Part shown: positions 21,571-39,438 of the stretch, piece by piece
How positions within the stretch are numbered: position 1 is the first letter of the stretch
How the letters are laid out: each line of letters starts with the position of its first letter
Assembly (NCBI GenBank): GCA_943356415.1
Contig: CALREW010000001.1
Location: forward strand, 357,745-421,744
Reading direction: 5' to 3'
DNA length: 64,000 nucleotides
DNA from: Candidatus Nomurabacteria bacterium
GTDB lineage: Bacteria; Patescibacteriota; Minisyncoccia; Phycocordibacterales; SBAW01
The notes under the pieces: generated by a model
What the model was told of the DNA's origin: nothing
The model's input: the letters and a program-made list of their open reading frames with translations, nothing else
Databases searched by the model: none
Made by a program: the position numbers and the translations under genes

Positions 21571-22605
21571 ATGACTGTCTCTAAGCTGGCCATTGCGGCC
21601 AAAGACGTGGCTGCCGCTCGCGCGGTAACGCCGATCATCTCTGAGCTTCGGCGCCTCAACCTGGAGCTGCGTATCGAGCTGTATGTCGAAGGGTTCGCCG
21701 CTGGCGAGCATTTCGGCATCGCGCCCACCCTATCCTCAAAGAAGGGCGGCTCCCTCAATTTGGCAGAGGTGCTCAAGCGGCTCGGAGAGTTCGACCCGGA
21801 CGTGTTACTCGTCGGATGCTCAACGTCCGACGAAGGCCCTTCGATCGAGCGAGCGCTCATCGAATCCCTCAGTGATGAGCAGCGCCGCAAGATCAAGATT
21901 GTGGCCGTCCCCGACTACTGGCGCGCGGAACATCGGCTGGGTCTCTCTGTCGATTTGCTGCTCGTCATCGATGATGTCGCCAAGCAGTTGGCCGTGCAGA
22001 ATGCGGCCGCAGCCGAAGAGCCGGTAATCATCGGTGACTTCGTGGCATCGGACGTGGAGGTGCAGAAGTGGATCGCCGGGTCCTTTGAAAGTGCCCTGCC
22101 CAAGGGGCTCGATCTCAACAAGACGCTTCTGGTCGTGGGGCAAGGACTACCGTATCTCCCCGACCTCATGAGTCTCTCCGTCGACTGCCTCAAGGAGTCG
22201 CCCGGCTGGACATTGGTGCCACGTCTCTTCCACCCCAAGAAAAAGCCGGACGATGGCCTGGTGGAGACCTGGAACCGGCTCTCAGAGCGATACCGCGACC
22301 GCATCGTAGAGCTCGATGCGCACATCTTCTCAACCGATGCGCTCGCCGTTGCCTGCGGCGCGACACTCTCTGGCTTCTCGACGACACTGCGGTACGCCGC
22401 CGCAGCCGGCAAGCTCGCGCTCTCGGGTGACACCGAAGCGGTGCGTGCCGGACGTTTGAAATCCACCAGCATAGAGCTCTACCCGCCGGCGATAACTGGC
22501 GAAGCGCTCGCGGTGACGCGGGGTATCCCGCTGCACAGCATGGGGTCCACCGTGCGCCCCTTCAACCCAACACTCGCCGCCAAGCGCATCTTGGCCCTCA
22601 AGTGA
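21571..22605 (+). CDS. GT-B fold protein with C-terminal HP(K) motif (TagF/KpsC-S/sialyltransferase/WecB-like); paralog of 38404..39438
   Basis: Sits in a GC-rich island with GGAGGG 10 nt upstream of the ATG. Shares ordered motifs with 38404..39438 (N-terminal Rossmann start, AVxDYW, FHPKxKxDxxxTW, xADxxAxxxSxxLxxAAAGKLAL). Substrate not assignable. Confidence 0.4.
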   Translation: MTVSKLAIAAKDVAAARAVTPIISELRRLNLELRIELYVEGFAAGEHFGIAPTLSSKKGGSLNLAEVLKRLGEFDPDVLLVGCSTSDEGPSIERALIESLSDEQRRKIKIVAVPDYWRAEHRLGLSVDLLLVIDDVAKQLAVQNAAAAEEPVIIGDFVASDVEVQKWIAGSFESALPKGLDLNKTLLVVGQGLPYLPDLMSLSVDCLKESPGWTLVPRLFHPKKKPDDGLVETWNRLSERYRDRIVELDAHIFSTDALAVACGATLSGFSTTLRYAAAAGKLALSGDTEAVRAGRLKSTSIELYPPAITGEALAVTRGIPLHSMGSTVRPFNPTLAAKRILALK

Positions 22606-22635
22606 ACCCGCGGCCTCAGGCCGCCTACATCGCAG

Positions 22636-22662
22636 AACCCCGCCCTAACCGGCGGGGTTTCG
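22636..22662 (+). terminator. intrinsic terminator downstream of 21571..22605
   Basis: ccccgcc-ctaac-cggcgggg followed by tttcg. Confidence 0.5.
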
Positions 22663-22666
22663 CACA

Positions 22667-23263
22667 TCAAAAATATCGACGCAGCCTCCTCAATGCTCGT
22701 GTGAAAAACTGTAGTTTCTTATTTACAAAAACCAAACGCCAAGTTCCCCCTGCGTATTCGACGCAAGATATCGAGGCAAGTGCAAGTGATTGCCGCTCGT
22801 TGGTAAGCCCCATAAGAAGGTTTTGCAGAATAAGTTCATGCGCCACAATGCACACCGCCTCCTGCGAGTTCGTTTTCCGCTGTTCGTCAAGAACGGCCCC
22901 GACTCTTGAGAGTGCTTGCTCATAGGTCTCCTCCACCGATCGTGCCGCGGTCTCTCTGGCTCGAAGTGACTGTACCAGTGCCGCAAATGCTTTCCCCTCA
23001 AGATCGTGCACCGGTTCCCATTCACACAACCGCTCGTCAAGACGAAGTGGTACACCGCACGTTAGCGATATGAACTCAGCAGTTTCTTTTGCGCGCGCAT
23101 AGGGACTACTTATAATTGATTCGATATGTTTCCCTTTTAAAAACCGAGCCGCGGCACGGGCTTGTGCTTTACCCCACACTGAAAGTGCCGCTTCACGCGC
23201 TTGCAGAGGTGTGAGCCCCTCACGTGGAACACTTTCTCCATGCCGCACCAAATAAACTTTCAT
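22667..23263 (-). CDS. histidine phosphatase superfamily (phosphoglycerate-mutase-like) protein
   Basis: Begins MKVYLVRHGES (RHG catalytic motif). Start set to the internal Met so that it abuts the upstream cytidylyltransferase stop. Confidence 0.8.
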   Translation of the reverse strand: MKVYLVRHGESVPREGLTPLQAREAALSVWGKAQARAAARFLKGKHIESIISSPYARAKETAEFISLTCGVPLRLDERLCEWEPVHDLEGKAFAALVQSLRARETAARSVEETYEQALSRVGAVLDEQRKTNSQEAVCIVAHELILQNLLMGLTNERQSLALASISCVEYAGGTWRLVFVNKKLQFFTRALRRLRRYF

Positions 23264-23979
23264 GCGCGTCCTTGTGTCTTCATCAAATACTCGTACGTGC
23301 TCCATCGCTCAAGGGTGTCAATACCGTTTTCTGCATGCGGAAGTATAACGGGTACAATCTTTTTCCCTGAGAGACCCTTAAACGCGGTAACCGTGCGCGC
23401 CCAAAGCGCATCGACATAGCCCACATGCTTGTACGCTTTCGGCAATAAATACGTTGGCTTATTAAATGCTTCTTCCCCTTCAAGTGCGATAAGCGGTTGT
23501 AAATACCCTTCTTCATCGACTGAGTACATTTTGTAAGGCGATTGCTCGGGTTCAGTGACCGTGCGCGCAGAATCCGCATCAGGATGCTCAGAGAGAGCCT
23601 CGATAGTTGCATCAATATGCTCGACAGTTCTAAGCGGCGACGTAGGGCGCAACTGCACTAGCATGTCGGGTGTCTTTCCTTCGTGCTCCTCCATCCAAGA
23701 GAGAGCGTGCTCAAACACGAGATAGTCGCGCGCTTCGTCAGTCGACATTTCTGCCGGACGCGTGTAGGGCACCTCAGCGCCAAGCGAGCGAGCGAGCGCT
23801 GCTATTTCTTCGTCATCAGTCGAGACAATGACTCGGTCAAGATAGGCTGACTTTTTGGCCTCCTCTATCGTCCAGGCGATAAGCGGTTTGCCACAGAGTT
23901 CCTTGAGGTTTTTACGCGGAACACGCTTGCTACCCCCTCGGGCAGGGATAATCGCCGTCACCGTATACGACTGAATCAT
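23260..23979 (-). CDS. CMP-nonulosonic acid synthetase (acylneuraminate cytidylyltransferase family, NeuA/PseF-like)
   Basis: AIIPARGGSKRVPRKNLKELCGKPLIAWTIEEA...VIVSTDDEEIA matches the CTP_transf_3 signature. Confidence 0.85.
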   Translation of the reverse strand: MIQSYTVTAIIPARGGSKRVPRKNLKELCGKPLIAWTIEEAKKSAYLDRVIVSTDDEEIAALARSLGAEVPYTRPAEMSTDEARDYLVFEHALSWMEEHEGKTPDMLVQLRPTSPLRTVEHIDATIEALSEHPDADSARTVTEPEQSPYKMYSVDEEGYLQPLIALEGEEAFNKPTYLLPKAYKHVGYVDALWARTVTAFKGLSGKKIVPVILPHAENGIDTLERWSTYEYLMKTQGRA

Positions 23980-24051
23980 ATGCCGTATTTAACCACGCAG
24001 AAAAACAAAGGTCACTGACCGAACCCGGGCGTTCGTTTACAATAGAGCGGT

Positions 24052-24393
24052 ATGGAAACCTACCGCGAAGAGAGGCCCTGGGGAGCCTTCGAACAATTCA
24101 CCCACAACGAGCCCTCAACCGTAAAGCTTATTCACGTATCTCCAACAGGTCGGCTCAGTCTGCAACGACACCAAAAACGTGATGAGTTTTGGAGGGTGGT
24201 TTCGGGCAGCCCTCGCATCACTATAGGAGACATTGTTACTATCGCTAACGTAGGTGACGAATTCTCAATTCCAAAAGGCACGATCCATCGCATCGAATCA
24301 CCAGATAGCGCCTCAGTGATACTCGAAATTGCAACGGGCGATTTTGATGAGAGTGATATCGAACGGCTCGAGGATACTTACGGTCGAGCGTAA
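24052..24393 (+). CDS. stand-alone mannose-6-phosphate isomerase cupin domain (type II PMI C-terminal domain family)
   Basis: EERPWGAFEQF...LQRHQKRDEFWRVVSG...DESDIERLEDTYGR reproduces the MannoseP_isomer cupin motifs. Confidence 0.75.
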   Translation: METYREERPWGAFEQFTHNEPSTVKLIHVSPTGRLSLQRHQKRDEFWRVVSGSPRITIGDIVTIANVGDEFSIPKGTIHRIESPDSASVILEIATGDFDESDIERLEDTYGRA

Positions 24394-25790
24394 GCATTAA
24401 GTCCCCTTGCAAGCTCTTCCCCGAGACGCCGTCCAGCGTTGCCGTCAAGCGGATCGAGCAGAAGCGCCTGTGCACGCTTCCGTGCGGCTTCATCGACATA
24501 CGAAGGAGTAAAACTTGCGAGCACTTCCTTGGCCAAATCCTGAGGCGTCGGGGCATAGGCGGCAGCTCCTGTTTCCATAAACGCTTCAAAGTGCGTGTAG
24601 CAGTCGTAATACCGCTTCACCGAGAGCCAATACGGCATATCTTTTCGTGCGCCATCGAATCCAACACAAATGGCGCGACGCCCAAAAGGAATCGCATCAA
24701 CGGCAACCGTCGAAGCTGCCGTTACCACTGCGTCGGCATAGGAAAGTGCGTGCATGTAGCGCTCCTCGCTGGTAAGGCCTTTCCCTTTCTCGTCGAGGTA
24801 CGACGTGTCTCCATCGAACACCACGTGAGTAAATTGGGCTAGTTTCTCTGGCGGCGGTTTAAATTTTGGATGCGCCCGCACCAGCACGCGCGCGCGAGGC
24901 CCGAAGGCGCCGTCGCGCGCCATGGCATTCATCACCTCAATCGCTCCCATTTCCTCAACAAAAAGGAACTCTCCCATTGCGCCGTAGAACACTAGTTTCT
25001 CCTCAGGCGAGAAACCGACACTCGCAAAAAACTGAACTTTAGGAATGAGTGTGTCGCGCGCTCGCAGATAGGCATCGTAATGAGGCAGTCCAACAATCGA
25101 CATCGGAACGCGAGATACACTTATCCCCTGGTATTTCGTAGCCATGTCCCGCAAAAAGACATTTTGAAGGAAAAAACGATCAGGGACCACGCGTAACAGA
25201 CCGTGACTTGAGAGATTGTCCCAGCTGCGAACCATTCCGAGGAGTGGGACCTTCTGCTGCCGCGCCGCGCGTGCCAGTGGAACGTCAAAGTTAAAGTTGG
25301 TGAGCGACAAACATACCAGCACGTCTGGCTGTAGGCTCCGTATACATTCAGTTGCCTCTTTATCTGAGGTGTAACGAATGATGAGAAACCGTACGAACCG
25401 TTTGAAAAGCGAGCTGTGTGCAAAAAGGGCCGTAAACACGCGTTTGCGATATGCCGACAAAAGACCGATGTCCCCGCGGGTATAGGCCCGCATCTTTGTC
25501 CACAGATTGGTGCGCGTCGGCAGGCCACTGCGCGCCAGAGACATAATCGCGCGTTCACGCGCTGTTTCCTTGCCACGCGCAAAGGTAACAACTTGCGCGT
25601 GCGCGCCGACCCGCGTGCGAATATCCTGGGCAATCGCTTCGTCAGCAATGATGGTCACCTCCGACGCCTCAAGAGTGCTAAAAAATGAATCGACAAATTC
25701 TTCGGTCAGTATATTCCTGGCGATAATTGCCTCTCCAACGGTTATAGCTACCCGCATACGCGTCAATGGTACTTCTTTTCTATCGTCCAT
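24378..25790 (-). CDS. hypothetical two-domain protein; C-terminal half is a third copy of the HP(K)-motif GT-B domain
   Basis: VRAHPKFKPPPEK...YADAVVTAASTVAVDAIPFGRRAI aligns with the FHPKFK...YADGVASGYSSTL...AGKLAL block of 38404..39438. Confidence 0.35.
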   Translation of the reverse strand: MDDRKEVPLTRMRVAITVGEAIIARNILTEEFVDSFFSTLEASEVTIIADEAIAQDIRTRVGAHAQVVTFARGKETARERAIMSLARSGLPTRTNLWTKMRAYTRGDIGLLSAYRKRVFTALFAHSSLFKRFVRFLIIRYTSDKEATECIRSLQPDVLVCLSLTNFNFDVPLARAARQQKVPLLGMVRSWDNLSSHGLLRVVPDRFFLQNVFLRDMATKYQGISVSRVPMSIVGLPHYDAYLRARDTLIPKVQFFASVGFSPEEKLVFYGAMGEFLFVEEMGAIEVMNAMARDGAFGPRARVLVRAHPKFKPPPEKLAQFTHVVFDGDTSYLDEKGKGLTSEERYMHALSYADAVVTAASTVAVDAIPFGRRAICVGFDGARKDMPYWLSVKRYYDCYTHFEAFMETGAAAYAPTPQDLAKEVLASFTPSYVDEAARKRAQALLLDPLDGNAGRRLGEELARGLNAYARP

Positions 25791-25812
25791 TACAACAGCG
25801 TGCGGACACTCG

Positions 25813-27195
25813 TTATGTCTTCACAATTCTAAATATCCTTAGATAACGGACGGCAAGTGCGCGAAGTTCACTCAAGATAATAATGTCGTCAGCATCGACG
25901 GTAAAAAAGTCCCGCCAATCAAGCGAAAATCCGGGCATAAGTTTCTTCAACGAACGATAGCGTTCCCACGTGTAGAGCGAATTGGATAGGATGTTGGCGT
26001 ACGCGATGCCGAAGAGTCCAAAGAAATGAATCATGACGGGCGTCAGGACGATAACGAGTACGAGCTTGTAGAGGGATGCAAAAAAGAGGTTGCGCTGTGC
26101 TTGAAGCGCATAAAACACGCCCCCAAAAATAATGTCGAAGGCAACCGAAATAAGCATAAGAAGCGTAATTTGAAACAGCGGTACGGACGAGAGGTATTGT
26201 GGGAAGAACCAACCGATAAAAAACGGAGAGAAGACTGCAGCAGCAATGCTCACGAGTGCGTAGCCAGCCAATTCATATTTAATTGCCTTTGCGACAATGT
26301 GATGGAATCGCTCTTTCAAATGAACATACTGCGGCAGCATGGGGATTATCACTCGATCAAGCGGCACGAGAGACATGGTGTGCCCGATGAGCCCTTGCGC
26401 GACCGCATAAATACCGACTGCCTCGGTTCCAAGGAAAAACTTGATAATCCATGGACGGATATTGCGCCCAAAAACACCGAGATAACTTGAAAAGACGCCC
26501 CATTTCCCATGATGGAACAAAAAGTGGAACGTCGGGTAGCGCGTCTGTTTGGTACTCCAAAATGACGAGTCGATGCGCACAAACGGAAGAGAGAACGCGA
26601 GTAAGCCAACCGCTTGCGAGAGGACAATGGCTAGTACCAAACCTTCCGTGCGCATATCGAACATAAAGAAGAAGAGCGCGAGCAAAAGCAATTTAAAAAG
26701 TTCTTCCGCAATAGAGTAGAGCGACTGTTGTTTAAATTCAAAATACACGCTCTGAAGCGCTTGCATGCAGATTCGTACGGGCGACAGCAAAAATGCAAAC
26801 GAGATTATTTTGAATAACGTGGACGCTTCTTCTTTGCCGTACTCAACGGCTAAAAAATGCGCCCCAAAGAAAACGGCCGCCCACAATAGTATTGCGAAGT
26901 ATGCCTGCAAACGGAGGAAAGAGAAGAAGAGCCCTTTCATGCGCGGCAAGTCGCCTACACCGCGCTGCCGCCCCATATCTGCAATAACGGTTGTACTGAG
27001 ACCCGGTAAGAGGAAAAGGGAGAGCAGTGGTATCGCGGTCAAGACGAGCTCCGCGGAACCGTACTCATGGAGCGTGAGGCGGTTGAGGACGAGTAGCACT
27101 GAAAGGAAACTGAGCCCCTTCATTACAAGGGTCGTCCCTGCCAACCACGTGGTCCCGCGTCCCACCGTCGATCTAACCGATGCATCCATCTTCAT
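25813..27195 (-). CDS. Wzx-like oligosaccharide flippase (MOP/polysaccharide biosynthesis protein family)
   Basis: 460 aa with about 12-14 TM segments and the typical PST-family N-terminus. Confidence 0.75.
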   Translation of the reverse strand: MKMDASVRSTVGRGTTWLAGTTLVMKGLSFLSVLLVLNRLTLHEYGSAELVLTAIPLLSLFLLPGLSTTVIADMGRQRGVGDLPRMKGLFFSFLRLQAYFAILLWAAVFFGAHFLAVEYGKEEASTLFKIISFAFLLSPVRICMQALQSVYFEFKQQSLYSIAEELFKLLLLALFFFMFDMRTEGLVLAIVLSQAVGLLAFSLPFVRIDSSFWSTKQTRYPTFHFLFHHGKWGVFSSYLGVFGRNIRPWIIKFFLGTEAVGIYAVAQGLIGHTMSLVPLDRVIIPMLPQYVHLKERFHHIVAKAIKYELAGYALVSIAAAVFSPFFIGWFFPQYLSSVPLFQITLLMLISVAFDIIFGGVFYALQAQRNLFFASLYKLVLVIVLTPVMIHFFGLFGIAYANILSNSLYTWERYRSLKKLMPGFSLDWRDFFTVDADDIIILSELRALAVRYLRIFRIVKT

Positions 27196-27361: not shown

Positions 27362-27853
27362 ATGAAAAAAAAGAAGAAAGTTGCTACGAAAAGTAAGAAG
27401 CGAAGGGTATATACCTACGGGGTATTCGACCTATTTCATAGCGGGCACGCGGAACTCCTGAAGAAGGCAAAAGGATTGGGTGACCACCTTGTTGTCGGAC
27501 TCTTTACCGATGAGGTTGCGGCAAGCTTCAAGCGGCAGCCGGTTATCCCCTATGAGCATCGCAAAGCCGTGCTTCATCACATAACCTTTGTCGATGAAGT
27601 TGTTCCACAAGATGAACTGCTCCCCCACAAGAATATTCTTAAAATAAAGCCTCACATTCTCGCAAAGGGGCCAGGCGCTGGCTGGGAGCCAAAAATGAAG
27701 GAGGCCCCTGGTGAAGAGGCGATAAAGGCAGTTGGCGGGAAAGTGGTTCGTCTTCCGTATCACGAGGGCATATCAACGAGTCAAATTATTAAAAAAATAG
27801 CAGACAACCATGGTAATAGTCTCAAATCACCTGCTCGAAAAAACCGAAATTAA
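27362..27853 (+). CDS. tagD: glycerol-3-phosphate cytidylyltransferase (TagD-like)
   Basis: YGVFDLFHSGHAELLKKAK (HxGH nucleotidyltransferase motif); about 160 aa. Confidence 0.8.
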   Translation: MKKKKKVATKSKKRRVYTYGVFDLFHSGHAELLKKAKGLGDHLVVGLFTDEVAASFKRQPVIPYEHRKAVLHHITFVDEVVPQDELLPHKNILKIKPHILAKGPGAGWEPKMKEAPGEEAIKAVGGKVVRLPYHEGISTSQIIKKIADNHGNSLKSPARKNRN

Positions 27854-28346
27854 TTTTCCACGCGAGCACGTTGTTATTCGTATTAACGTCGCCTGGATAC
27901 AGACGAAGGAAAAGTTGGTTGAACTGCTTGGCGGCATCTCTCACGATATTTTCCTCGACTACCCGCAAGGACGCTCAAAGCCGCCTCGCCCAACGCTCAC
28001 CCTCGACGAGACGATAGAACTCATACCTCAGTTTCCAAACATCAAATATTTTGCGGTCTCAAACGTCGAAGACCCTGATGCCGTCGCGCTCATAAAGGAC
28101 CGTCTCCCGGAGTCGGTAGAGCTTGTACCTAAAATAGAAACGAAGAGAGGCGTCGAGATGCTCAAAGAGATCGTCACCCGCATCGGCACGAAACACATCA
28201 TGCTCGATAAGGAAGATCTCTACACGAACGTCAATCTAGACCAGGAGGTCTTCGAGCAGCTCGTGACGCTTGCGCGTGCAAACTGCAAGGAAACAGGCGT
28301 TGCCACCCTCGAGCTTCAAGGGGTCGTTTTTGCTCCACACGAGTAG
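27810..28346 (+). CDS. small PEP/pyruvate-binding TIM-barrel-like protein (pyruvate-kinase-like superfamily fragment)
   Basis: FAVSNVEDPDAV...LVPKIETKRGVEMLKEI...IMLDKEDL resembles the PK FASFIR...KIENxEGVxxxDEI...IMVARGDLG block and PEP-utilizers_C. Only about half-barrel length. Confidence 0.35.
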   Translation: MVIVSNHLLEKTEINFPREHVVIRINVAWIQTKEKLVELLGGISHDIFLDYPQGRSKPPRPTLTLDETIELIPQFPNIKYFAVSNVEDPDAVALIKDRLPESVELVPKIETKRGVEMLKEIVTRIGTKHIMLDKEDLYTNVNLDQEVFEQLVTLARANCKETGVATLELQGVVFAPHE

Positions 28347-28355
28347 GCCCGTTTC

Positions 28356-29585
28356 TTACTCAACAATTCTTTCTATCCTCGCGAAAACCTGGCTCGCTGA
28401 TTTTTCAGGCTGAGGATTGAGTACCATCGCACGAATCTTTGCGCGCTCACCCGCATACGCCTCCGGCTGCTTTGCAGCGTCAATAAGTGCCTGATAGAGC
28501 GCTTCGACGTTTTGTGCCTTTTGCCCTGGGGTAATTGCCTCGTAGTCAAAGTACATCTCGCGCATCTGACCCGTGTAGGTATCGAGGTCAAATGGGAAAA
28601 AGACGATTGGTCGGTCAAGCACCAAAAACTCGATGTATACGGATGAGTAGTCCGTCAAAAGTATGTCAGTAAAGCGAAGTGGAAGCATTGCGCCCACTTC
28701 TGCAGGCAAGAAACTAAGATTCGAAAACGGTTGATTCCCTGCTGGTGGAAGTTCGTGGTGCATCTTTATATACATGTGCATCGCGTGTTTTCCTAAGAAC
28801 GCATCAAGGGCGGCGAAGTCGAGTCCACTTTTCTCGAGCGGATTGTTGCTCCCGTCACGGAACGTCGGCAAGTACATAATTACTTTTTTTGTAGCGCGAA
28901 TTGCCTCCATGGTCTCAATGAGCCTCTGTTCACTTGGAAGTACGAGCACGTCAGATGAGAGGAGCGCCTCGTTACGTGGTTGGTTCTCAACAATCACGTG
29001 TGAAGTGTCGACGCGGAATGCGGAGCTAAAGAAATCACGCCAGGACTTTGATTGAGAGAGCACGTAATCGCCAAAATCAGCCTTGTACGGTTCGAAAAAA
29101 AGATGATAGAAGCGCTTTAGCCCAGTCGTGGTATACACCCAATTATTCTTCTTGGTCTTTGCCGAATCATAGACAATCTTTTTTATCGGCAACCCGTGCC
29201 AGAGGTTAATCTTCACCATTCCGCCAGTCAGGAAGTAGAACGCCGATATGTGGGACTCGATAACAATTACTTTTGCACGAAGCGTGTACCAGAGTCCTTG
29301 AAGTGAGTAGGCGTGATACGCGTGAAATCCTTGCTCGGTAAGTTCGGCTGCAATCTCATCCGAATGGGTAATCCAAACCGCTTTCAAGTGAGTTTGATTG
29401 TTGTGCATGTAGAGGTAGAGATATCGAGCATTATCCGCAAAGCGCTTCCCTCCCCATTCATCAAATAGCCATACGCGTTTGCTTCGCGGCACACAAAACG
29501 AAAGGCCGTACAGTATATAGAAAACACACCGAAGCAGCGCTCGAGGAATATCTAACAAAAGTCGTATCATCCGTTTGAAAATCAT
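28356..29585 (-). CDS. CDP-glycerol glycerophosphotransferase (TagB/TagF family)
   Basis: Glyphos_transf motifs: YLPTFRD, MHHELPP (HP-type), TDILLTDYSSVYIEFLVLDRPIVFF. Confidence 0.8.
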   Translation of the reverse strand: MIFKRMIRLLLDIPRALLRCVFYILYGLSFCVPRSKRVWLFDEWGGKRFADNARYLYLYMHNNQTHLKAVWITHSDEIAAELTEQGFHAYHAYSLQGLWYTLRAKVIVIESHISAFYFLTGGMVKINLWHGLPIKKIVYDSAKTKKNNWVYTTTGLKRFYHLFFEPYKADFGDYVLSQSKSWRDFFSSAFRVDTSHVIVENQPRNEALLSSDVLVLPSEQRLIETMEAIRATKKVIMYLPTFRDGSNNPLEKSGLDFAALDAFLGKHAMHMYIKMHHELPPAGNQPFSNLSFLPAEVGAMLPLRFTDILLTDYSSVYIEFLVLDRPIVFFPFDLDTYTGQMREMYFDYEAITPGQKAQNVEALYQALIDAAKQPEAYAGERAKIRAMVLNPQPEKSASQVFARIERIVE

Positions 29586-30878: not shown

Positions 30879-32549
30879 TCAGGCTGTGCTGCTTTGCGTG
30901 AGGTTGCCCACGCGCAGGATGTTTGGGCCTGGCATGCCCATCGAGTGCTCGAAGGTAATGCCGGGCGCGCCAGGATTGAACGGGATGTTGAGCAGAGCGC
31001 GGACGCCGTCCTCCAGATCGCCTCGCAGTCGGACGAGGTCCTCCCGCGAAAGCGTGTCCGTGTAGACGTACGACTGGTACCCGCCCTCGGGGTCGCCCTT
31101 GTAGTAGTAGGCCTTCGCCAGAGGGTCGAACGCGTCGAGATAGAGGCGGTCTCCCGTTCCACCCCCACGCAGCGGTACCGTGTAGACCCAAGGCCCTTCA
31201 GGGTGCGCTGGATCGACCGGCTCGGCGTCGTCGTAGTAGGGCGTGCCGGGATAGCACGTGATCAGCGAGACGTCGAAGTCGTTCGGTTTCTGGGCGAGAA
31301 GCCACTGGCGAGTCTCCTCGATAGTTGCTTCCGTTTCGCCCGGATGACCGACCGACATAAGTGCCTTCACCTTGATCCCGTGCTTCTGGGCAATCTGCAG
31401 GCAGCGAGTGTTGTCTTCAGCCGTCGCCTGCTTGTGGATGTTCTTGAGAATCCTCGGTGAGCCCGACTCGAACCCGACGAGAATCCAGCGGAAGCCGGCA
31501 GCGTACATCGCGGCGGCCTGCTCTTCGTTGAAGAGCTCGGCCTTGATGAACCCGCGCAGACGCCACTCAACCCCCAGCTCTTCTTGCTTGCGGGCGATAG
31601 CCTTCATGAGGCCGACGAGTTCCTTGTTCACGTTGAGTTCGTCGTCGTAGAACATGAAGCCCGTCTTGCCCGTGGTCCTCCACAGGTGCTCCATCTCCGC
31701 GACAATGTCCTCGGTCGTGCGCGTACGGATGCGTCGAAGCATCGAAGACTTGCGTCCCCCGCAGAAACGGCAGCCGAACGGGCAGCCAAGTTGCGCAATC
31801 AGCGAGATCGCCGGGAAGCCCTCGATCGTGTAGCGATAGCTGGCGGCGTCCACCAGATCCCGAGCTGGCCACGGAAGCTCCTCGAGCTTCTCATTGGTCA
31901 GGAAGAGATCAGACGATGGCTCGTCGGCGTCGATGAGTTTCGGAGCGCCCGGATGGCACGCTTCGAAAATGGCCTCTTCGCCGTCGCCGGCAACGAGGAC
32001 ATCGAAGAGCTCGCCAAGTTCTTGCATGTGCGTTGCCGCACGGCGGAACTGCGCGTTACGCTTCGCTTCCCCCTTGGCAGCCGCATTCACGAGCGTGACG
32101 TGCGGACCGCCGAGGATGATCTTCGAGCCCGGCTTCTTCTGCCGCAACACGTTGACGATTCCGGCAACCGCCGGCATCTGCGGCGTGGTCGCCGTGATGC
32201 CGAAGAGCGTCGCGTCGCTGTGAGCAACGAAATACTCCACGGTCTCCAGGTAATTCTTCACGCCGGAGAGGTCGAGAACCCCGACCTCCGCTCCCGCCGC
32301 ACGCAGCACCGCCGCGATACGCAGGACTCCGAGGAACATGAAGACCCGCTCGTCGAGCAAGAATGCCGACGGCGGAATGATGAGCGTAATTGCCTTCGGC
32401 ACGACCTTCTCCGGAGCCCGAGCTCCGCGAAGGTCCGCCTGTGCGGTCTCACGCATGAGCAGACTCCTTCCAAAAAGTGAACCGATGTGCCCGTGCCCAA
32501 TAGAAAGGGCGGCCGAAGTCACAATAGCAAGTGCGTACTCGAACCGCAA
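30879..32549 (-). CDS. cobalamin (B12)-binding radical SAM enzyme (class B rSAM, probable methyltransferase)
   Basis: N-terminal B12-binding Rossmann domain, then CPFGCRFCGG (CxxxCxxC). GC-rich island. True start may be the internal Met (MRETAQ...). Confidence 0.8.
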   Translation of the reverse strand: MRFEYALAIVTSAALSIGHGHIGSLFGRSLLMRETAQADLRGARAPEKVVPKAITLIIPPSAFLLDERVFMFLGVLRIAAVLRAAGAEVGVLDLSGVKNYLETVEYFVAHSDATLFGITATTPQMPAVAGIVNVLRQKKPGSKIILGGPHVTLVNAAAKGEAKRNAQFRRAATHMQELGELFDVLVAGDGEEAIFEACHPGAPKLIDADEPSSDLFLTNEKLEELPWPARDLVDAASYRYTIEGFPAISLIAQLGCPFGCRFCGGRKSSMLRRIRTRTTEDIVAEMEHLWRTTGKTGFMFYDDELNVNKELVGLMKAIARKQEELGVEWRLRGFIKAELFNEEQAAAMYAAGFRWILVGFESGSPRILKNIHKQATAEDNTRCLQIAQKHGIKVKALMSVGHPGETEATIEETRQWLLAQKPNDFDVSLITCYPGTPYYDDAEPVDPAHPEGPWVYTVPLRGGGTGDRLYLDAFDPLAKAYYYKGDPEGGYQSYVYTDTLSREDLVRLRGDLEDGVRALLNIPFNPGAPGITFEHSMGMPGPNILRVGNLTQSSTA

Positions 32550-33689
32550 TTACGAAGTCGAAATAACCTCGAATATTCTCTTTGCGCGCTCCTCCCACGA
32601 ATGGGTCGCGACTACCTCCCTCGCCTTTATTGCCGCACGGTCTGCTCCAGCAGCGAATGCCTTTTCGAGCGCTTCTGCAAGTGACTGCTCGTCGTCAGGA
32701 GCAAAGAAAAATCCAGCATCTTCTGGAAGCACTTCCTGTATTGAAGGGAGTCGCGCGGCGACAATGGGTCTCCCGCTTGCCATATAGCCAAACAACTTCA
32801 TCGGAGAAGTGTAGTGGGATGAAATCATTTCTTTTCCAGAATTTGGGAGGACAAGTACATCGGCAGCGCGTTGCCAGAGCGGCAACTGGCGATATGGAAC
32901 GTGTCCCACAAGTCGTACCGAGGGTATGTGCTCGTAGCGTGCTGAAAAAGCGGCAACATCTTTTTTAGTGCCTCCAACAAAAACACACAGCGCGTCCGGA
33001 ACAAGTGCGGCAGCCTTCGCAAGCGTATCGACACCTTTCCACTCGTAGAGAAGTCCCGTATACACAGCGATGGGTACGTTTTGCGGGAGCCCGAGCGTTG
33101 CGCGCGCTTCCTTTTTACTCGTCTCTATAGAAAACTCCTCGAGCGCCACTGCATTTTGTTCGACAAAGACCTTTTGTGAAGCAAGATGAAATCGTTTTAC
33201 CAACTCTTGCGCCTTCCAACGGTTCGTTGCCAAAATGTGCCTCATGCGCTTGAGGAATATATGGTAGAAATACAAACTTTTTTCAGGAAAATCATGCACT
33301 GCGTAGACCGTATTTGGGAAGAAGAACGAAGCAAAATACAGCGGGAGTGACTCATTGGAATAGAGAATGTCACTCTCTTTAGCTTTCACCAGAAGGTACA
33401 GAAGTGAGCTAATAGAAAACGTGAAAAGACTCAACCGAAATGCAATAAATGAAAGGAGCGGCACTCGGAAAAGATCGATGGTTGGGAGATAGACGATCCG
33501 TACACCTTGAGGAAGCCGGTAGTACTCGTGCGCGTCGCGAGGGATCCTCCCCAACCGGCGAGGAGCGACAATCGTCACTGCCGCGTGCCGTAAAAATGCA
33601 CGCGCCTCTTCCGCAGCAAAAAGAGCGGCAGCTTTCTCACTGGGGAAACGCCCATGCAGGAATATGTAAATGCATCGAGAGGTATTCAT
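32550..33689 (-). CDS. GT4 (GT-B) glycosyltransferase
   Basis: C-terminal EX7E-type motif ...SPMKLFGYMASGRPIVAARLPSIQEVL. Confidence 0.85.
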   Translation of the reverse strand: MNTSRCIYIFLHGRFPSEKAAALFAAEEARAFLRHAAVTIVAPRRLGRIPRDAHEYYRLPQGVRIVYLPTIDLFRVPLLSFIAFRLSLFTFSISSLLYLLVKAKESDILYSNESLPLYFASFFFPNTVYAVHDFPEKSLYFYHIFLKRMRHILATNRWKAQELVKRFHLASQKVFVEQNAVALEEFSIETSKKEARATLGLPQNVPIAVYTGLLYEWKGVDTLAKAAALVPDALCVFVGGTKKDVAAFSARYEHIPSVRLVGHVPYRQLPLWQRAADVLVLPNSGKEMISSHYTSPMKLFGYMASGRPIVAARLPSIQEVLPEDAGFFFAPDDEQSLAEALEKAFAAGADRAAIKAREVVATHSWEERAKRIFEVISTS

Positions 33690-34756
33690 AGTGGTGTTGC
33701 ACGAGAGGATATCTCACGAGGGTGACTAAAGAGAAACCGATAAAATGCATCTGCACGCAAATACGTTTCAAATACTTCGCGCCCACGACGCTGTTTTTTT
33801 ACATACTCCTCGTCATCCATCGAGTCGTAGTACGCGCGAATATGCTTCCCCAAAGAAGCCATGTCTGTGTACGGCACGAATAAACAAAAACTCTGGTAGT
33901 CGATTATATCTTCAAGTGGCAAAAGACTGTCAGTATCCACAACAACCGGCATTCTCCCTACCGAGAGCGCTTCATAGAAGCGTGTTGCGGCATTTCCATC
34001 ACCACGAACAGTCAAAGCAAAATCTGCACCGACGAGATTATCTAGAAACTCCTTTTGTAACGATTCAATCGAACCTATTGCCGTTTTTCGATTAAGTGAG
34101 AAGAAGGTTCGTACGATAAAGTGTGTCTCAACATCGGGTGACGCGGCAAGGATTTGTAACATTCGTTCACGGAATGAAACACCTCCTTTATGCGCACGTA
34201 AGTATGGCGCGCGGAGAATGATTGCCTTACCTTCCCAAAAGCTATTCTTTATCCATTCTTTAAGACGTGCGCGTAGCGTTGCGTGCCGAGCCCGTCCGCA
34301 AAAAGAAATTGAAGGTACACCGTCGTGTTTGTGTCGCAACGTAATTTCCCCTTCAAGTTTTTCCGGAGCATACGGTGGGATGATAATCTCGTTTTGCCGC
34401 TTTCGGTGACGGTACTGCGAATACCGGAGTACGATGGTGTTTGAAAGTGCTATGTCGGAGTCATCATCCCCATAAGCGATGAGAATCAGAATTCGATCAA
34501 CTGAGCGCGCAAATGCGACAGCGGCTTCTAGGTGTGCCCTGTCGTCCTTGCGTACTTCTTTGTACCAGTGCGGGTACAGCAGGTAATCCGCATCTGAAGG
34601 ATTGGCCACAACCTCAAAAAAAGGAGTGTATTTCTTAAATATGTCCGCCAAATGGACCTGGCTCCGGGTGTAATAGTCTTCAGTGCCATACACCGGGTAC
34701 AACTCAGGTATGATTGGCTTTCCCTGGATACGTTCGTATACGTAGATTTTGGTCAT
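33686..34756 (-). CDS. exostosin (GT47)-like glycosyltransferase
   Basis: FALTVRGDGNAATRFYEALSVGRMPVVVDTDSLLPLEDIIDYQSFCLFVP matches the exostosin C-terminal block. Confidence 0.5.
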   Translation of the reverse strand: MTKIYVYERIQGKPIIPELYPVYGTEDYYTRSQVHLADIFKKYTPFFEVVANPSDADYLLYPHWYKEVRKDDRAHLEAAVAFARSVDRILILIAYGDDDSDIALSNTIVLRYSQYRHRKRQNEIIIPPYAPEKLEGEITLRHKHDGVPSISFCGRARHATLRARLKEWIKNSFWEGKAIILRAPYLRAHKGGVSFRERMLQILAASPDVETHFIVRTFFSLNRKTAIGSIESLQKEFLDNLVGADFALTVRGDGNAATRFYEALSVGRMPVVVDTDSLLPLEDIIDYQSFCLFVPYTDMASLGKHIRAYYDSMDDEEYVKKQRRGREVFETYLRADAFYRFLFSHPREISSRATPL

Positions 34757-34757
34757 A

Positions 34758-35387: not shown

Positions 35388-36406
35388 GTAAGTGCTTCGA
35401 CAATTTTTGGGACAAGTTTCTGCAATGAATGATTCTCTCGCACGTACGTAGTAAGTGGCTCCATTGAAACCTCTCTCGCATGCAGTATAGCGTCAGCAAC
35501 ACGCGTTGGATTGTTTCCTTCTACATAGAGTCCGTATGGCGTAAGGAGACTGCGAAATGCTTCGTTGGTCGTTACCAAAGGAAGCCCTGAAACCAACGGT
35601 TCAAATCCAGCCTTGTCCATATTCCCTGTTGTACCAAAGTTAAGAAATACATCGTGCTGCTGAAATAGTTCAGGAATTGCCACGTGTGCGGCTGGACCGT
35701 ACAAAACTACCGAATCACGTAAGCCCATGCGCTCTATATCTCCAATCAATTCCCGGCTGTATTGCTCTTCTGCAGCGGTCCCAGCGCCTCCGACAAATGT
35801 GAGGAGTGGTTTCTCACCACGTCGCAGGAGCTCAGAAACAACGGGCAACATTTCTTTGAGGTGTTTGCTCTCTGCGATGCGCCCAACGGAAATGAGTCTC
35901 AGTCGATCGGCGTGCGCTTTTTGTTGTGGCTTGAATCGCTCCATGTCCACTCCGTGGCCCATGGGTTCTAGTTTGGATGTCCTCATACCGAAACTTTCTT
36001 TCGTGACGCTAAATACCTTGTCGGTAAAAAGTAGTGCTATGCGCAACTTCAGCGTGACACTCTTGTGTGCGTACCATAGGGATGTCTTTTTATTCCACAG
36101 TTTCCAAAACCAACCACAGACAACCAAGTATTCCGGATTCATATGAACAAAAACGGCATCGTAGGAATTCCTCTCTGCTATTGAAACCTGGAGCAGGCGC
36201 CATGCGTACGAAATAGAAGATGCTGTTCTCTTCTCTTTACCTAAAGAAAAAACTCGCACATTCTGCGGAAGCGAATGTCTCCCCTCCTTTAGACACACCA
36301 CACTCACCTTTTCGCAATGCTTCGCAAACTCAGCAACCCACTCATGAAAAAACCCGAGATGCGGGTCATCGCTATCGAGTACTTGCGTCGTAATTAGCAG
36401 TCTCAT
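35384..36406 (-). CDS. GT4 glycosyltransferase
   Basis: GT-B architecture. Start moved to the internal Met (MRLLITTQVLD...) to avoid overlap with the upstream gene. Confidence 0.75.
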   Translation of the reverse strand: MRLLITTQVLDSDDPHLGFFHEWVAEFAKHCEKVSVVCLKEGRHSLPQNVRVFSLGKEKRTASSISYAWRLLQVSIAERNSYDAVFVHMNPEYLVVCGWFWKLWNKKTSLWYAHKSVTLKLRIALLFTDKVFSVTKESFGMRTSKLEPMGHGVDMERFKPQQKAHADRLRLISVGRIAESKHLKEMLPVVSELLRRGEKPLLTFVGGAGTAAEEQYSRELIGDIERMGLRDSVVLYGPAAHVAIPELFQQHDVFLNFGTTGNMDKAGFEPLVSGLPLVTTNEAFRSLLTPYGLYVEGNNPTRVADAILHAREVSMEPLTTYVRENHSLQKLVPKIVEALT

Positions 36407-36434
36407 ATCCCGTAGCCCATATAGTACTACTTGG

Positions 36435-37292
36435 CTATTTCTTCCCGACACGTGCTCCATATACTCCCCGCAAAAGACCAAGGTCTTTCTTTGTCGAAGT
36501 TAAAAGGGCAATATTTTTTGCTTCAAGTGCGCGCAATACGGCAAGACCTGTTTTGTCCTTTGTAAGGATCTGCTGGTACATACCGCGCGCTGCAGCCATG
36601 TCTTTGATAAAACAGCCGCCACCTGCTCCACGGCCGCTTTTATGAAGCGGCCGTGCGTACCGATTGGAAATAAAGGGGTCTGCAAGCGCTGCTTTCTCGA
36701 TTGGTTCCCAATCGCAGCCAAGTGCTTTTGCAAAGTCGTACATCAGATTAAAAAGGATGACTTGCGCGTAGCCGCTTAGATTGTGGGTGTACTTAAACAC
36801 TTCTGCTTCGTCACTTGAGCACGTGAGAACAAACGGAGCCTTAGGCAAAATGGCGTGCACGAGCTTTGCCGCTTCCACGTGCTTCTTTGTCTTACGAGGC
36901 AAACCAACGATATTCTCAGCTGGATGTGCCGCATCATGCGCAGCGGTCCCCACACTAAGGAATTCCGGAGAAAAGAGGACGGTGATATTTTTGTGAGCTG
37001 ATTGGAAACGTTTGGTTGTACCCGGCAACAAGGTCGACTTGATGACCGCGATCTTTCCCGACCCCACAAGCGAAAGTGCCTGCTTCACAATGCCCGCATC
37101 AAAACCCTTTGGGGTCGTCGGTGTTGGCACGCCGATAAACACAACATCGCAGTCTTTGATAAATGCCTTGTTACGAACATAGGGTTCTTCAAGCGAATAC
37201 CGTACGACAGAAAAGCCACGACGCTCAAAATCGTTCGCGTAGTTTTTCCCAACGTATCCCTGACCGATAAATCCTATGCGTGGCTTTTTCAT
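36435..37292 (-). CDS. UDP-glucose/GDP-mannose dehydrogenase family protein, short form lacking most of the C-terminal UDP-binding domain
   Basis: N-terminal GFIGQGYVG, FSPEFL and catalytic-Cys motif GGGCFIKD are present. Only ~55 aa follow the Cys motif, so the ~285 aa product is truncated compared with typical UGDH. Confidence 0.6.
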   Translation of the reverse strand: MKKPRIGFIGQGYVGKNYANDFERRGFSVVRYSLEEPYVRNKAFIKDCDVVFIGVPTPTTPKGFDAGIVKQALSLVGSGKIAVIKSTLLPGTTKRFQSAHKNITVLFSPEFLSVGTAAHDAAHPAENIVGLPRKTKKHVEAAKLVHAILPKAPFVLTCSSDEAEVFKYTHNLSGYAQVILFNLMYDFAKALGCDWEPIEKAALADPFISNRYARPLHKSGRGAGGGCFIKDMAAARGMYQQILTKDKTGLAVLRALEAKNIALLTSTKKDLGLLRGVYGARVGKK

Positions 37293-37365
37293 GAAAATTG
37301 CACGCGCTCTGCGTGCACGCCCCAACACCCTCACAGCATACAACACCAAGATACTATGCGAAGTT

Positions 37366-37459
37366 TCAAACGAAAAAGCCGTCCCCAGAGGGACGGCTTC
37401 TCCCAGCCTTGCGGCTGAAATGTGTGGGCGAACCGCGTGTGCGGTTAGCCCAGGAGCTT
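37366..37459 (-). repeat. copy A of a ~90-bp 3' element (three hairpins including an intrinsic terminator) following gene 37445..38224
   Basis: Near-identical to 38323..38418 (3 substitutions plus a 2-nt indel over ~85 nt). Confidence 0.85.
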
Positions 37460-38224
37460 AAGCTTGTCGAAAGCCCTGCAGACGCTGAGCGCGTCGGCGA
37501 ACTGCTTCGCGATCTTCTCGCGCGGACGGTTCCGAGGGCTCATCGCCGGCACAGGGACGACCTTCACGTTCAGTCCGGCGGCGATGGCTCCGAGTGCTAT
37601 CATGCCATCGAAGCCCCAGGACACCTCTTCGCCACGGGCCCGCTCGACCTCCGCGTGAATCAACATAGCTTTGTCGAGCACACACCGGAGCACATTCTTC
37701 CCCCGGAAGAGCTGAAAGCCGTGGGCGCACGAGAGGCGCAGTTTGCCGCCGCTCGTCTGCCCATAGAGTTCCGGGAAAACATCCCTGTGCATGACCTCGT
37801 CCGCGGACCCGTAAATGAGGCCGTTGGACGAGTGGCTGAAGTCGAGGTCGCCGATGACCATGTCGGCCCTTTTTTCCTCCAAGGCGCGGCAGAGGTCCCT
37901 GATCTTGCAAATGGGATGCTCCGCCGTGTCCAGGCGAACGATGGTTTCTTCGGACCCACCGCAGAGCACTGCGGTGTCATAGCCAGCGCGCAGAGCGCCA
38001 GCAAGTCCGCGGACGTGCGAGTAGACGCCGACCATACCGAAACCCTTCTTGGCGGCAACACGCGCGAGTTCGACATCTTCAGCAGGGTCGGGGCAGCCAT
38101 TGACCGCCACGATGATCCTTGTCGAGGTGTCTTTCATCTCCTTGCGCAGCTGCGCAAGGAACGAGCCTTCTTCCTCGGCGGCTTTGATAGCCTTTCCTTG
38201 GAAGTCGGGCACGACGATAATCAA
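37445..38224 (-). CDS. hypothetical protein, possibly a GT-A fold glycosyltransferase; TTG start
   Basis: GC-rich island. Starts IIVVPDFQ (GT2-like first strand). Contains GDLDFS acidic motif. Family assignment weak. Confidence 0.3.
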   Translation of the reverse strand: MIIVVPDFQGKAIKAAEEEGSFLAQLRKEMKDTSTRIIVAVNGCPDPAEDVELARVAAKKGFGMVGVYSHVRGLAGALRAGYDTAVLCGGSEETIVRLDTAEHPICKIRDLCRALEEKRADMVIGDLDFSHSSNGLIYGSADEVMHRDVFPELYGQTSGGKLRLSCAHGFQLFRGKNVLRCVLDKAMLIHAEVERARGEEVSWGFDGMIALGAIAAGLNVKVVPVPAMSPRNRPREKIAKQFADALSVCRAFDKLKLLG

Positions 38225-38322
38225 CTTGTCCCAACCTTTCCGGGATTTTTACCCGAAAATATAATACTACAGATTTTAATAAAAATCAATATCTCTATCT
38301 GCTCATCATTTTAAGACTCCTC

Positions 38323-38418
38323 TCCAACGAAAAAGCCGCCCCCAGAGGGACGGCTTCTCCCAGCCTTGCGGCTGAAATGTGTGTGGGCGAACCGCGTGTG
38401 AGGTTAGTCCAGGAGCGC
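38323..38418 (-). repeat. copy B of the ~90-bp 3' element following gene 38404..39438
   Basis: See copy A. The terminator stem here carries a substitution that becomes a U-G wobble in minus-strand RNA. Confidence 0.85.
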
Positions 38419-39438
38419 GAGGATGGCTTGCGCTCCAATGGACGGATTGAGCGGCTGCAGCTCGTACTTCGGCCACTGCCGCTTAAAGAACTCGTCGAGC
38501 GGTTTGGGTTGCGCCAGCACCGGGTAGCCGCCCTGCATCATAAGCGGCGACTTCTTGAGACCCGCTTGGCGGAACAGCTCACTAGCCGTGCTCTGGTTCC
38601 AGAGCGTGAGGGCAAGCTTCCCCGCCGTTGCCGGCCGCATCAAAGTCGAACTGTAGCCGGACGCCACGCCGTCGGCGTACTGGATGATCTCGTCGGTCGG
38701 CTCGGACATCATATGGACGCGGCCGCACATCGTGAGCGGCTCGAGCACCCGGTCACACCACACGCCCCAGGTCGTCCCATCTTCCCGCAGGACATCCTTG
38801 AACTTCGGATGGAACTTCGGGATCAGGATGACACGCTGCGAGGTTTCCAGGATCGAGCTGACCAGATGACGGAGTGCCGGATCGGCATCCGGGCCACCGT
38901 CAGGATAGACGAGCAACTTGTCGCTCGCCTTCTCGCGAAGCGAGTCCATCCTCGCCTTGAGATCCGGGTTGGCCTTAACCGGTGTGATGCCGGCGAAGCC
39001 AACCTGTACGATCGAGACTTGTCTGCCGGGCCACCGCTGCCGGACGAGCGTGTCGCTCACCGCGTCGATGGTGAGGTAGAGATCGGCGGGCTGCTCAGCC
39101 CGCTTTTCCACACCCCAGTAGTCCACAGCATGCACCAGAGGAACATGGTGCGAGAAGCTGCGTGCCTGCCGATCGAATTCGGCCTCCATCACGCGCGGCG
39201 AAGAGATGCCGGTGACGAGCGCGTCGGGGTTGAGCTTGACGAGGATGTCGCGAGGGGAATCGCCTTCGTCGACGAGTTGGTAGGGCTGCAGGCTCTCGTT
39301 GAGCTTTGCCGTCGCCCTGCCGTCCTTCTCGATGAGCAGATGTACTTCATGGCCGAGGCCGCGAAGTTCCTGGACCATGGGGAGCAGCACATTGGCTGGC
39401 CCCATGTCCCGAATGGCAACAACGATTCTCTTTTTCAA
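38404..39438 (-). CDS. GT-B fold protein with HP(K) motif; paralog of 21571..22605; TTG start
   Basis: FHPKFKD ... YADGVASGYSSTLMRPATAGKLAL. AGAGGTG upstream of the TTG start. Confidence 0.4.
   Translation of the reverse strand: MKKRIVVAIRDMGPANVLLPMVQELRGLGHEVHLLIEKDGRATAKLNESLQPYQLVDEGDSPRDILVKLNPDALVTGISSPRVMEAEFDRQARSFSHHVPLVHAVDYWGVEKRAEQPADLYLTIDAVSDTLVRQRWPGRQVSIVQVGFAGITPVKANPDLKARMDSLREKASDKLLVYPDGGPDADPALRHLVSSILETSQRVILIPKFHPKFKDVLREDGTTWGVWCDRVLEPLTMCGRVHMMSEPTDEIIQYADGVASGYSSTLMRPATAGKLALTLWNQSTASELFRQAGLKKSPLMMQGGYPVLAQPKPLDEFFKRQWPKYELQPLNPSIGAQAILALLD

Follow-up and report, generated by a model that had tools for sequence, protein, structure and literature searches.

Candidate ulosonic acid transferases of the GT-B type in a surface-glycan locus of a Nomurabacteria genome

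Little is known of the enzymes that transfer nonulosonic acids apart from sialic acid, and families of nonulosonic acid transferases are still being defined singly (GT118 in 2024 and GT140 in 2026; PMC12887879). Here, we ask which proteins would use such a sugar in a surface-glycan locus of a Candidatus Nomurabacteria bacterium. The locus lies within 64,000 nucleotides of contig CALREW010000001.1 (positions 357,745 to 421,744), a stretch that we call the window and whose numbering is used unless another locus is named. Three of its proteins, A, B, and C, had been proposed from the DNA letters alone to be glycosyltransferase B (GT-B) paralogs with a shared HP motif, acting on CMP- or CDP-linked donors made by neighboring genes. 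Our analysis makes all three candidates for soluble GT-B transferases with CMP as the leaving group that would add an ulosonic acid to a lipid-linked glycan, a reading to which we give somewhat better than even chances; some family members may add glycerol phosphate instead. Ulosonic acid transfer is proposed because of the predicted solubility, the GT-B fold, a cytidine-type donor motif, and kinship to TagB-like nonulosonic acid transferases. The three genes are the following (aa, amino acids).

21571–22605, plus strand: protein A, a predicted 344-aa GT-B protein of the A/B family, ATG start
38404–39438, minus strand: protein B, a 344-aa paralog of A, TTG start
24378–25790, minus strand: protein C, a predicted GT-B protein of 470 aa (probably 459 aa), TagB/TagF/BFO_1060-like

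Proteins A, B, and C and their families

Aligned over their full length, A and B share 26% identity (E = 9e-21). At the sequence level, this confirms the original prediction that they are full-length paralogs, with a similarity far beyond chance. Gene A is divergent from the gene for the NeuB-family synthase, with an intergenic region of 152 bp between the two, and is preceded by a GGAGG-like ribosome-binding site. Gene B is flanked by GT4 genes and lies 17 kb from NeuB. The key residues are D115, D134, H221-P222-K223 (nt 22231–22239), and S267/S270 in A and E85, D106, D125, K208-x-H210-P211-K212 (nt 38803–38811), and S260/S263 in B. The motifs on which the relationship had been argued are present, including DYW at A115 and B106 and AGKLAL at A279 and B272, although two of the quoted patterns contained small errors. 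A has one residue more at the HPK block (LVPRLFHPK vs. LIPKFHPK in B), and YADGVAS of B aligns with ACGATLS of A, not with its FSTDALA. Both proteins also carry a serine block, SGFST at A267 and SGYSS at B260, and no transmembrane segments are predicted in A, B, or C.

A 376-aa open reading frame (ORF) on the opposite strand (38377–39507, plus strand) is longer than B and covers it completely. It was rejected as a real gene, since homologs exist for the minus-strand product only; judged in this way, it is a shadow ORF and a potential trap for gene callers.

Searches with single sequences returned little. Neither A nor B matched Pfam or NCBIfam models or, by phmmer, any PDB entry; a word-indexed homolog search with A recovered nothing beyond an identical copy; the GTDB representative genomes gave no match to A alone; and a tblastn search of B against plasmids gave no match. 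An MptE-like/Maf match on A (E 0.085) was rejected as Rossmann-level noise. By contrast, an exhaustive HMMER search with an alignment of seven A/B sequences yielded 754 clusters at 50% identity with E ≤ 1e-3, 277 of them with E ≤ 1e-10, and the family profile scores A at 377 bits. Nearly all of the members listed are 330–360 aa long and match over their full length. Every member with a known source comes from bacteria of the candidate phyla radiation (CPR), under the names Parcubacteria, Paceibacterota, Yonathbacteria, and Saccharibacteria.

Across the A/B family, G40, P81, E85, D106, D125, G147, H210, P211, and P298 (B numbering) are near-invariant, and K212, W108, S263, and A269 are likewise strongly conserved. 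In the predicted secondary structure, the near-invariant residues fall just after beta-strands of both domains, which is where the cleft and active-site residues of a GT-B enzyme would be expected to sit.

Protein C had been counted as a third paralog. It does carry RAHPKFKP and YADAVVTAASTV, the block that had prompted this claim, yet pairwise BLAST of C against A or B is not significant (E 0.17–0.49). The relationship emerges when families are compared: with 136 sequences for the A/B family and 41 for the C family, hhalign reports a probability of 98.3% and E 1.2e-14, and in this alignment of 277 columns LIPRFHPK lies on LxRAHPKF and ADxTxSGFST on ADVVVTGAST. In addition, C was recovered from a small ORF database (E 6e-11) by an A/B-family HMM built without any C sequence, and an A/B HMM also picked up C-type proteins, with E-values between 1e-8 and 1e-11, at four independent loci. 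Because homology to C is visible only at the family level, the window holds two paralogs and one remote homolog from a sister family rather than three equal paralogs.

A single-sequence search with C gave no Pfam or NCBIfam match, and phmmer against the PDB found nothing; a word index returned 65 homologs, most of which carry a precomputed PF04464 match. The key residues of C are R305-A-H307-P308-K309 (HPK at 307–309, nt 24864–24872), RSWDN at 188–192, and TAAST at 357–361, and RSWDN is near-invariant in its family. The protein probably starts at Met12 (nt 25757), because the database gene call is 459 aa long and the pLDDT is 61 for residues 1–10 of the model.

Fold, remote relatives, and the donor motif

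AlphaFold returned confident GT-B models for B and C, in agreement with the fold originally predicted: a pair of Rossmann-like beta/alpha/beta domains separated by a cleft, with a C-terminal helix crossing back to the N-terminal domain. The best structural neighbors come from the UDP-sugar 2-epimerases and the GT4 enzymes rather than from TagF or the sialyltransferases, and no sequence link was found for the suggested kinship to GT38, GT52, GT80, and KpsC/KpsS. None of the 136 A/B members matches PF00534, PF13692, PF04464, PF02350, or the sialyltransferase and Capsule_synth Pfam families.

This ranking of structural neighbors could indicate that A and B are ordinary UDP/GDP/dTDP-sugar glycosyltransferases that add a hexose acceptor, with C alone transferring the ulosonic acid. 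Weak matches to the Glyco_transf_4 N-domain in 14 of the 136 A/B members and the place of B among GT4 genes point the same way, as does the closer relation of C to the only genetically validated TagB-like nonulosonic acid transferases. However, the C-terminal domain aligns with TagF-like proteins and not with Glycos_transf_1 (PF00534 and PF13692 having no matches), the near-invariant HPK together with (K/R)xHP is typical of cytidine donors, and no link to GT4 comes near the A/B-to-C relation (E 1e-14) in strength.

The epimerase neighbors suggest another function, namely that A and B are NeuC/LegG/PseG-like hydrolyzing NDP-sugar 2-epimerases, or hydrolases, that free a hexose for NeuB. The sole significant PDB match of the A/B profile is indeed a UDP-sugar 2-epimerase (E 6.5e-4, HPK on its HPR), and hhalign of the A/B family to Escherichia coli WecB gives E 3.4e-4 at a low-confidence probability of 38%. 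On this weak alignment, the acids that serve in WecB catalysis (D95, E117, and E131 in the E. coli protein) are not kept: D95 corresponds to Ser/Gly79 of the A/B family and E117 to column 105 (V in B, P in A), and E131 lies in a segment absent from the family. Unlike WecB, NeuC, and LegG (PF02350), the family has no PF02350 match and shows (K/R)xHP in place of the PVHP/HLNP context, with canonical UDP-sugar epimerases reading PVHPR or VHLNP at the equivalent place. That epimerases are the top matches was not taken to indicate function, since the TagF-like protein C has the same ones.

The nearest characterized superfamily by sequence is that of TagF, TarB, and TarF. A profile of the C family aligns with TagF (3l7i) at E 4.8e-5, placing RAHPKF on LLRMHY, which we take to be the His584 region, and ADVVVTGAST on SDCLITDYSS. 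The region of the donor-phosphate histidine and a TDYSS-type C-terminal block are thus present in the C family by alignment to TagF and in the A/B family by its register with C, and the HP histidine would be the histidine of the donor phosphate, as had been suggested. Further likenesses to TagB/TagF/TarL (PF04464) are a GT-B-like fold, a (T/S)x(Y/F)S(S/T) block (SGYSS in B vs. TDYSS in the canonical enzyme of the window), and the location of this histidine, which in the C-terminal domain follows the second strand; in those enzymes CMP is the leaving group, as we propose for A, B, and C.

This kinship favors a second alternative, in which A, B, and possibly C are TagB/TagF-type polyol-phosphate transferases that move glycerol phosphate from CDP-glycerol onto the glycan, the target possibly being the ulosonic acid or a neighboring sugar. 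The chemistry would be the same, with CMP leaving and the histidine on the phosphate, and only the group moved would differ. However, the window has a canonical CDP-glycerol glycerophosphotransferase (Glyphos_transf, 28356–29585) by its TagD-like gene, and hhalign of the A/B profile against this protein gave no match. It shares only the C-terminal TDYSS region, where it reads TDILLTDYSS, with the C family. No PF04464 match was found for A, B, or C at E ≤ 1, and the N-terminal halves of TagF and of the window's canonical enzyme gave no alignment with either the C family or A/B. The catalytic base is a histidine of that half (TagF His444, TarL His300), and TagF has its catalytic histidine in a WHG motif. 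A conserved histidine beside tryptophan is absent from both families, as the tryptophan is followed by D191 in RSWDN of the C family and by G109, after W108, in the ED-x-WG of A/B. This equivalence would follow from the A/B-to-C alignment and the TagF motif.

The closest curated model is NF046086 (BFO_1060 family glycosyltransferase), matched by 40 of the 41 C members at E ≤ 0.01 (best E 1.7e-17) and by 4 of the 136 A/B members (best E 5.7e-5), with nothing else meaningful in NCBIfam. C itself scores 11.4 bits (E 0.12) against a curated cut-off of 200 bits. All judgeable matches are far below this cut-off, and A and B (~345 aa) have no match themselves; by these scores, the C and A/B families are relatives rather than members of NF046086. 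C is placed by sequence in the TagB/TagF clade, closest to the BFO_1060 family. C is a new member of a TagB/BFO_1060-like clade, and A/B is an unannotated sister family, so far seen in CPR bacteria. The expectation that these proteins would be distant from characterized families therefore suits A and B, for which there is no Pfam or NCBIfam family model and no PDB sequence match, but not C.

BFO_1060, Tanf_01245, and TFUB4_00887 are transferases of pseudaminic or legionaminic acid derivatives in Tannerella forsythia, with a TagB-like domain and an HP motif, and knock-outs lose the nonulosonic acid (PMC5420450). Like A, B, and C, they are soluble GT-B proteins with the HP motif, encoded together with CMP-nonulosonic acid genes (PMC5420450). 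They differ in coming from Bacteroidota rather than CPR bacteria and in their sugar, which in our case is probably Kdn-like rather than pseudaminic or legionaminic acid. For the Kdn-teichulosonic acid cluster of Streptomyces, SCO4879 has been called NeuE-like (PMC3479208).

The HP motif also extends to the fuller form expected of cytidine donors. It reads KFHPK in B, RAHPK in C, and RLFHPK in A, where the arginine is one residue further off. Strict (K/R)xHP occurs in 83 of 136 A/B members (61%) and 26 of 41 C members (63%), and the K/R is one residue further away in 15 more A/B members. This sequence is the CMP/cytosine-binding signature of sialyltransferases and retaining Kdo transferases, with the Lys/Arg on cytosine O2/N3 and the proline packed against the base (PMC12887879). 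It is shared, in the C-terminal domain, by the GT38, GT52, and GT80 sialyltransferases and the retaining Kdo or pseudaminic acid transferases of GT99, GT107, GT118, and GT140 (PMC2169525, PMC12887879). Meningococcal polysialyltransferase has KLHPK where B has KFHPK, and its HP mutants raise the Km for CMP-Neu5Ac; in PmST1, His311 contacts the CMP phosphate (PMC2169525). A possible further likeness to the sialyl-, Kdo-, and pseudaminic acid transferases, whose donor is a CMP-ulosonic acid, is an N-terminal acidic motif ~100–125 residues upstream of HP. The A/B consensus there is E-D-x-W-G (D106 in 134 of 136 members, E105 in 78 of 136). The A/B acid is in the expected kind of position, although the D/E-D/E-G motif is not literally there.

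Gene neighborhoods and the proposed route

The other relevant genes of the window are the following (Pfam accession and E-value in brackets).

20318–21418, minus strand: NeuB-family ulosonic acid (9-phosphate) synthase with SAF domain (PF03102, 5.4e-80)
22667–23305, minus strand: His_Phos_1 histidine phosphatase, presumed ulosonate-9-phosphate phosphatase (PF00300, 1.5e-30)
23260–23979, minus strand: CMP-ulosonic acid synthetase, CTP_transf_3, NeuA/KdsB type (PF02348, 1.8e-28)
24052–24393, plus strand: 113-aa cupin matching the mannose-6-phosphate isomerase C-terminal domain (PF01050, 5.7e-21)
25813–27195, minus strand: Wzx-type flippase, Polysacc_synt (PF01943, 3.5e-21)
27362–27853, plus strand: TagD-like cytidylyltransferase, presumed CDP-glycerol source (PF01467, 2.6e-18)
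28356–29585, minus strand: canonical CDP-glycerol glycerophosphotransferase, Glyphos_transf (PF04464, 2.3e-60)
6673–8886, minus strand: Wzy_C and TPR membrane protein of the O-antigen ligase/polymerase type (PF04932, 5e-21)

The first part of this list forms a compact module with A and C, in the order NeuB, A, His_Phos_1, CMP-sugar synthetase, cupin, C, and flippase; the TagD-like and canonical glycerophosphotransferase genes come after it. In the Kdn-9-phosphate pathway, an isomerase step is followed by condensation with phosphoenolpyruvate by NeuB, dephosphorylation, and activation with CMP. Judged by its gene families, the window is predicted to encode a complete Kdn-like route of this phosphorylated-intermediate kind (cupin isomerase, NeuB, phosphatase, and CMP synthetase), with no precursor step missing and the cupin as the presumed sugar-phosphate supplier for NeuB. 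Since all the upstream steps are encoded, a transferase would be the missing one.

We compared 14 neighborhoods of family genes beyond the window, among them L002 and L005, which share synteny. Three contexts lie on contigs of 1.6–2 kb and were judged partly by NeuB fragments at the contig ends, and L014 offers too little sequence for a judgment. Six loci came from a degenerate DNA pattern (W-G ... [IV]PRFHPK ... [FY]S[ST]), and three of these were true. NeuB and/or a CMP-sugar synthetase is encoded ≤10 kb from the family gene in 10 of the 14 neighborhoods and in that of A itself, in support of the predicted link to neighboring CMP-sugar genes. NeuB is the immediate neighbor in seven loci (that of A, L008, L009, L010/11, L012, L013, and L023), and L002, L005, L020, and L022 also have NeuB and/or CMP synthetase within this distance. 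L008 repeats the order of the window exactly: NeuB, A-type gene, His_Phos_1, CMP synthetase, C, and cupin. A C-type gene co-occurs in the window, L008, L010, L020, L022, and L023, and L002/5 has a longer TagF-like protein. For the phosphatase step, the window and L008 have His_Phos_1, and L002/5 and L023 have a KdsC-like HAD protein; cupin orthologs are found in L008, L010, and L020. The company of NeuB and CMP synthetase (in the window, L002/5, the named loci among L008–L013, L020, L022, and L023) resembles that of the BFO_1060 family. Unlike TagB/TagF, the family has NeuB and CMP synthetase, not TagD, as its genomic partner in most loci.

These neighborhoods bear on each of the alternatives. 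It is difficult to see why a generic hexosyltransferase gene would directly adjoin NeuB in seven loci, and we consider it quite unlikely that A and B are ordinary NDP-sugar enzymes. A position next to NeuB is also typical of neuC in sialic acid clusters and would suit an epimerase. However, L022 (3280–4449 and 8726–11044) encodes a canonical NeuC-like Epimerase_2 beside NeuB in addition to two tandem A/B paralogs and a C-type gene. Moreover, the phosphatase in the window and several other loci and the cupin in several point to a sugar-phosphate route that would not need an NDP-sugar hydrolase, and B and the genes of L007, L015, and L017 are not beside NeuB. The epimerase reading, which the original prediction had kept as an alternative, is thus disfavored, and we regard it as very improbable. 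L022 also shows that family genes occur in pairs more than once, and different lineages probably use different sugars.

Transfer of glycerol phosphate gains from the TagD-like gene of the window (27362–27853), from another in L022 that is 8 kb from the family genes, and from L007, where the family gene is immediately preceded by a TagD-like cytidylyltransferase gene and the 10.5-kb contig shows no NeuB. Still, most neighborhoods have NeuB and/or CMP synthetase with no TagD-like gene in reach, and together with the canonical glycerophosphotransferase and the tryptophan motifs this leaves glycerol phosphate transfer by A, B, and possibly C unlikely in our view, though not negligible.

Under the favored reading of ulosonic acid transfer, A and B would be cytoplasmic, and the cytidine nucleotide donor would be bound in the C-terminal Rossmann domain of A, B, and C. 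There, the Lys/Arg of (K/R)xHP would contact the cytosine and the proline pack on the base, the HP histidine (His210 of B) would stabilize the phosphate of the departing CMP, and the N-terminus of the SxxS(T/S) helix would bind phosphate. An invariant aspartate of the N-domain, either D106 of B in ED-x-WG or D125, may activate the acceptor hydroxyl, for an inverting or retaining transfer from the CMP ester of the ulosonic acid. The most likely donor for A and C would be the CMP-activated Kdn-like ulosonic acid made next door. In this route, the cupin isomerase would provide a sugar 6-phosphate, NeuB would combine it with phosphoenolpyruvate to give the ulosonate 9-phosphate, the phosphatase would remove the 9-phosphate, and the CMP synthetase would activate the product. 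The most likely acceptor would be an undecaprenyl-linked oligosaccharide, later flipped by Wzx and handled by the Wzy_C/TPR protein. The paralogs may differ in acceptor or linkage, and B, among its GT4 genes, could attach a second residue or form another type of linkage.

Several observations weigh against this reading, in addition to the epimerase match of the A/B profile and the gene order in L007. The same profile has no sialyl-, Kdo-, or pseudaminic acid transferase match in the PDB (for sialyltransferases, none at E ≤ 10). Both A (PDYWR) and B (VDYWG) lack the first acid of the D/E-D/E-G motif. In L015 and L017 (Saccharibacteria), neither NeuB within 8 kb nor a TagD-like gene was found. 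Three candidate transferases for one ulosonic acid exceed the minimum needed. Furthermore, Bacillus subtilis SpsB, which has TagB-domain and HP motifs and is encoded beside legionaminic acid genes, is dispensable for legionaminic acid transfer (PMC7439481).

More tentatively, and short of an even chance, A/B could be a new CAZy-level glycosyltransferase family, apparently confined to CPR/Patescibacteria, whose members move a Kdn-like ulosonic acid from its CMP ester. Alongside the C-type TagB-like enzyme, and the canonical glycerophosphotransferase where present, such a family would build a teichulosonic or teichoic acid-like surface polymer. A full-text literature search found no paper joining Patescibacteria, candidate phyla radiation, or Saccharibacteria with nonulosonic acid terms. 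If ulosonic acid transfer holds, it would give a first handle on the chemistry and assembly of surface glycans in ultra-small CPR bacteria. If CDP-glycerol or a UDP-sugar proves to be the donor, the family would be an ordinary addition to GT-B diversity. The family is compact, predicted to be soluble, confidently modeled, linked to NeuB, and present in hundreds of clusters, and it offers a concrete, expressible transferase candidate that is worth testing, though it would not surprise a glycobiologist.

Other features of the window and related loci

According to Pfam scans, the surface-glycan locus spans 14.7–43.8 kb of the window, mostly on the minus strand. It contains five GT4-type glycosyltransferases, three GT2 genes, one GT47-like gene, several methyltransferases, a B12-radical SAM enzyme, the Wzx flippase, two YfhO genes, one PMT_2 gene, and one GtrA gene. 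Upstream of it lie the Wzy_C/TPR protein and then MurB and SecA, all recurrent neighbors of A/B-family genes. Orthologs of Wzy_C/TPR occur in L002, L005, L007, L008, L010, L011, L015, L022, and L023. The order of ulosonic acid module, Wzy_C/TPR, MurB, and SecA is conserved in the window (2809–8886), L002, L010/11, L015, L022, and L023. Because this order is conserved across distant CPR lineages, the glycan locus appears to occupy a fixed chromosomal position beside cell-wall and secretion genes.

NeuB occurs in an unusual form in L009 (1321–3360, minus strand), where a 680-aa protein beside the A-type gene fuses NeuB (SAF) to an AP_endonuc_2/xylose-isomerase-like TIM barrel; L002/5 has an AP_endonuc_2-type TIM-barrel domain as a separate gene in the cluster. 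The window has a B12-binding radical SAM enzyme (30879–32549, minus strand), and a 560-aa radical SAM gene also lies within the NeuB/CMP-synthetase cluster of L023 (4629–6311, minus strand); C-methylation or some other radical chemistry on the sugar is a possible role.

Overlapping the end of the TagD-like gene is a 178-aa ORF (27810–28346, plus strand) with only weak HpcH/HpaI and pyruvate-kinase-barrel matches, which may be a phosphoenolpyruvate- or pyruvate-handling partner of the cytidylyltransferase. At 33686–34756 (minus strand), a 356-aa protein has an Exostosin/GT47-type domain (E 3.8e-12), from a family that is mostly eukaryotic. Near B, the region 36435–38314 holds a UDP-glucose/GDP-mannose dehydrogenase ORF of 304 aa with N-terminal and central domains and no C-terminal domain. 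The ORFs beside it (37298–38314, plus strand, and 37445–38224, minus strand) have no Pfam match, and the region may hold a truncated gene or an unrecognized one.

The two YfhO paralogs (823 and 829 aa) and the PMT_2 and GtrA proteins, at 8939–13270 and 17746–20235 (minus strand), look like an extracytoplasmic glycan-modification system of the GT-C type. Directly after the glycan locus (43849–47249, minus strand) come a surface protein with Lamin-tail and PKD domains and then a TrwB/TraG-like coupling ATPase.

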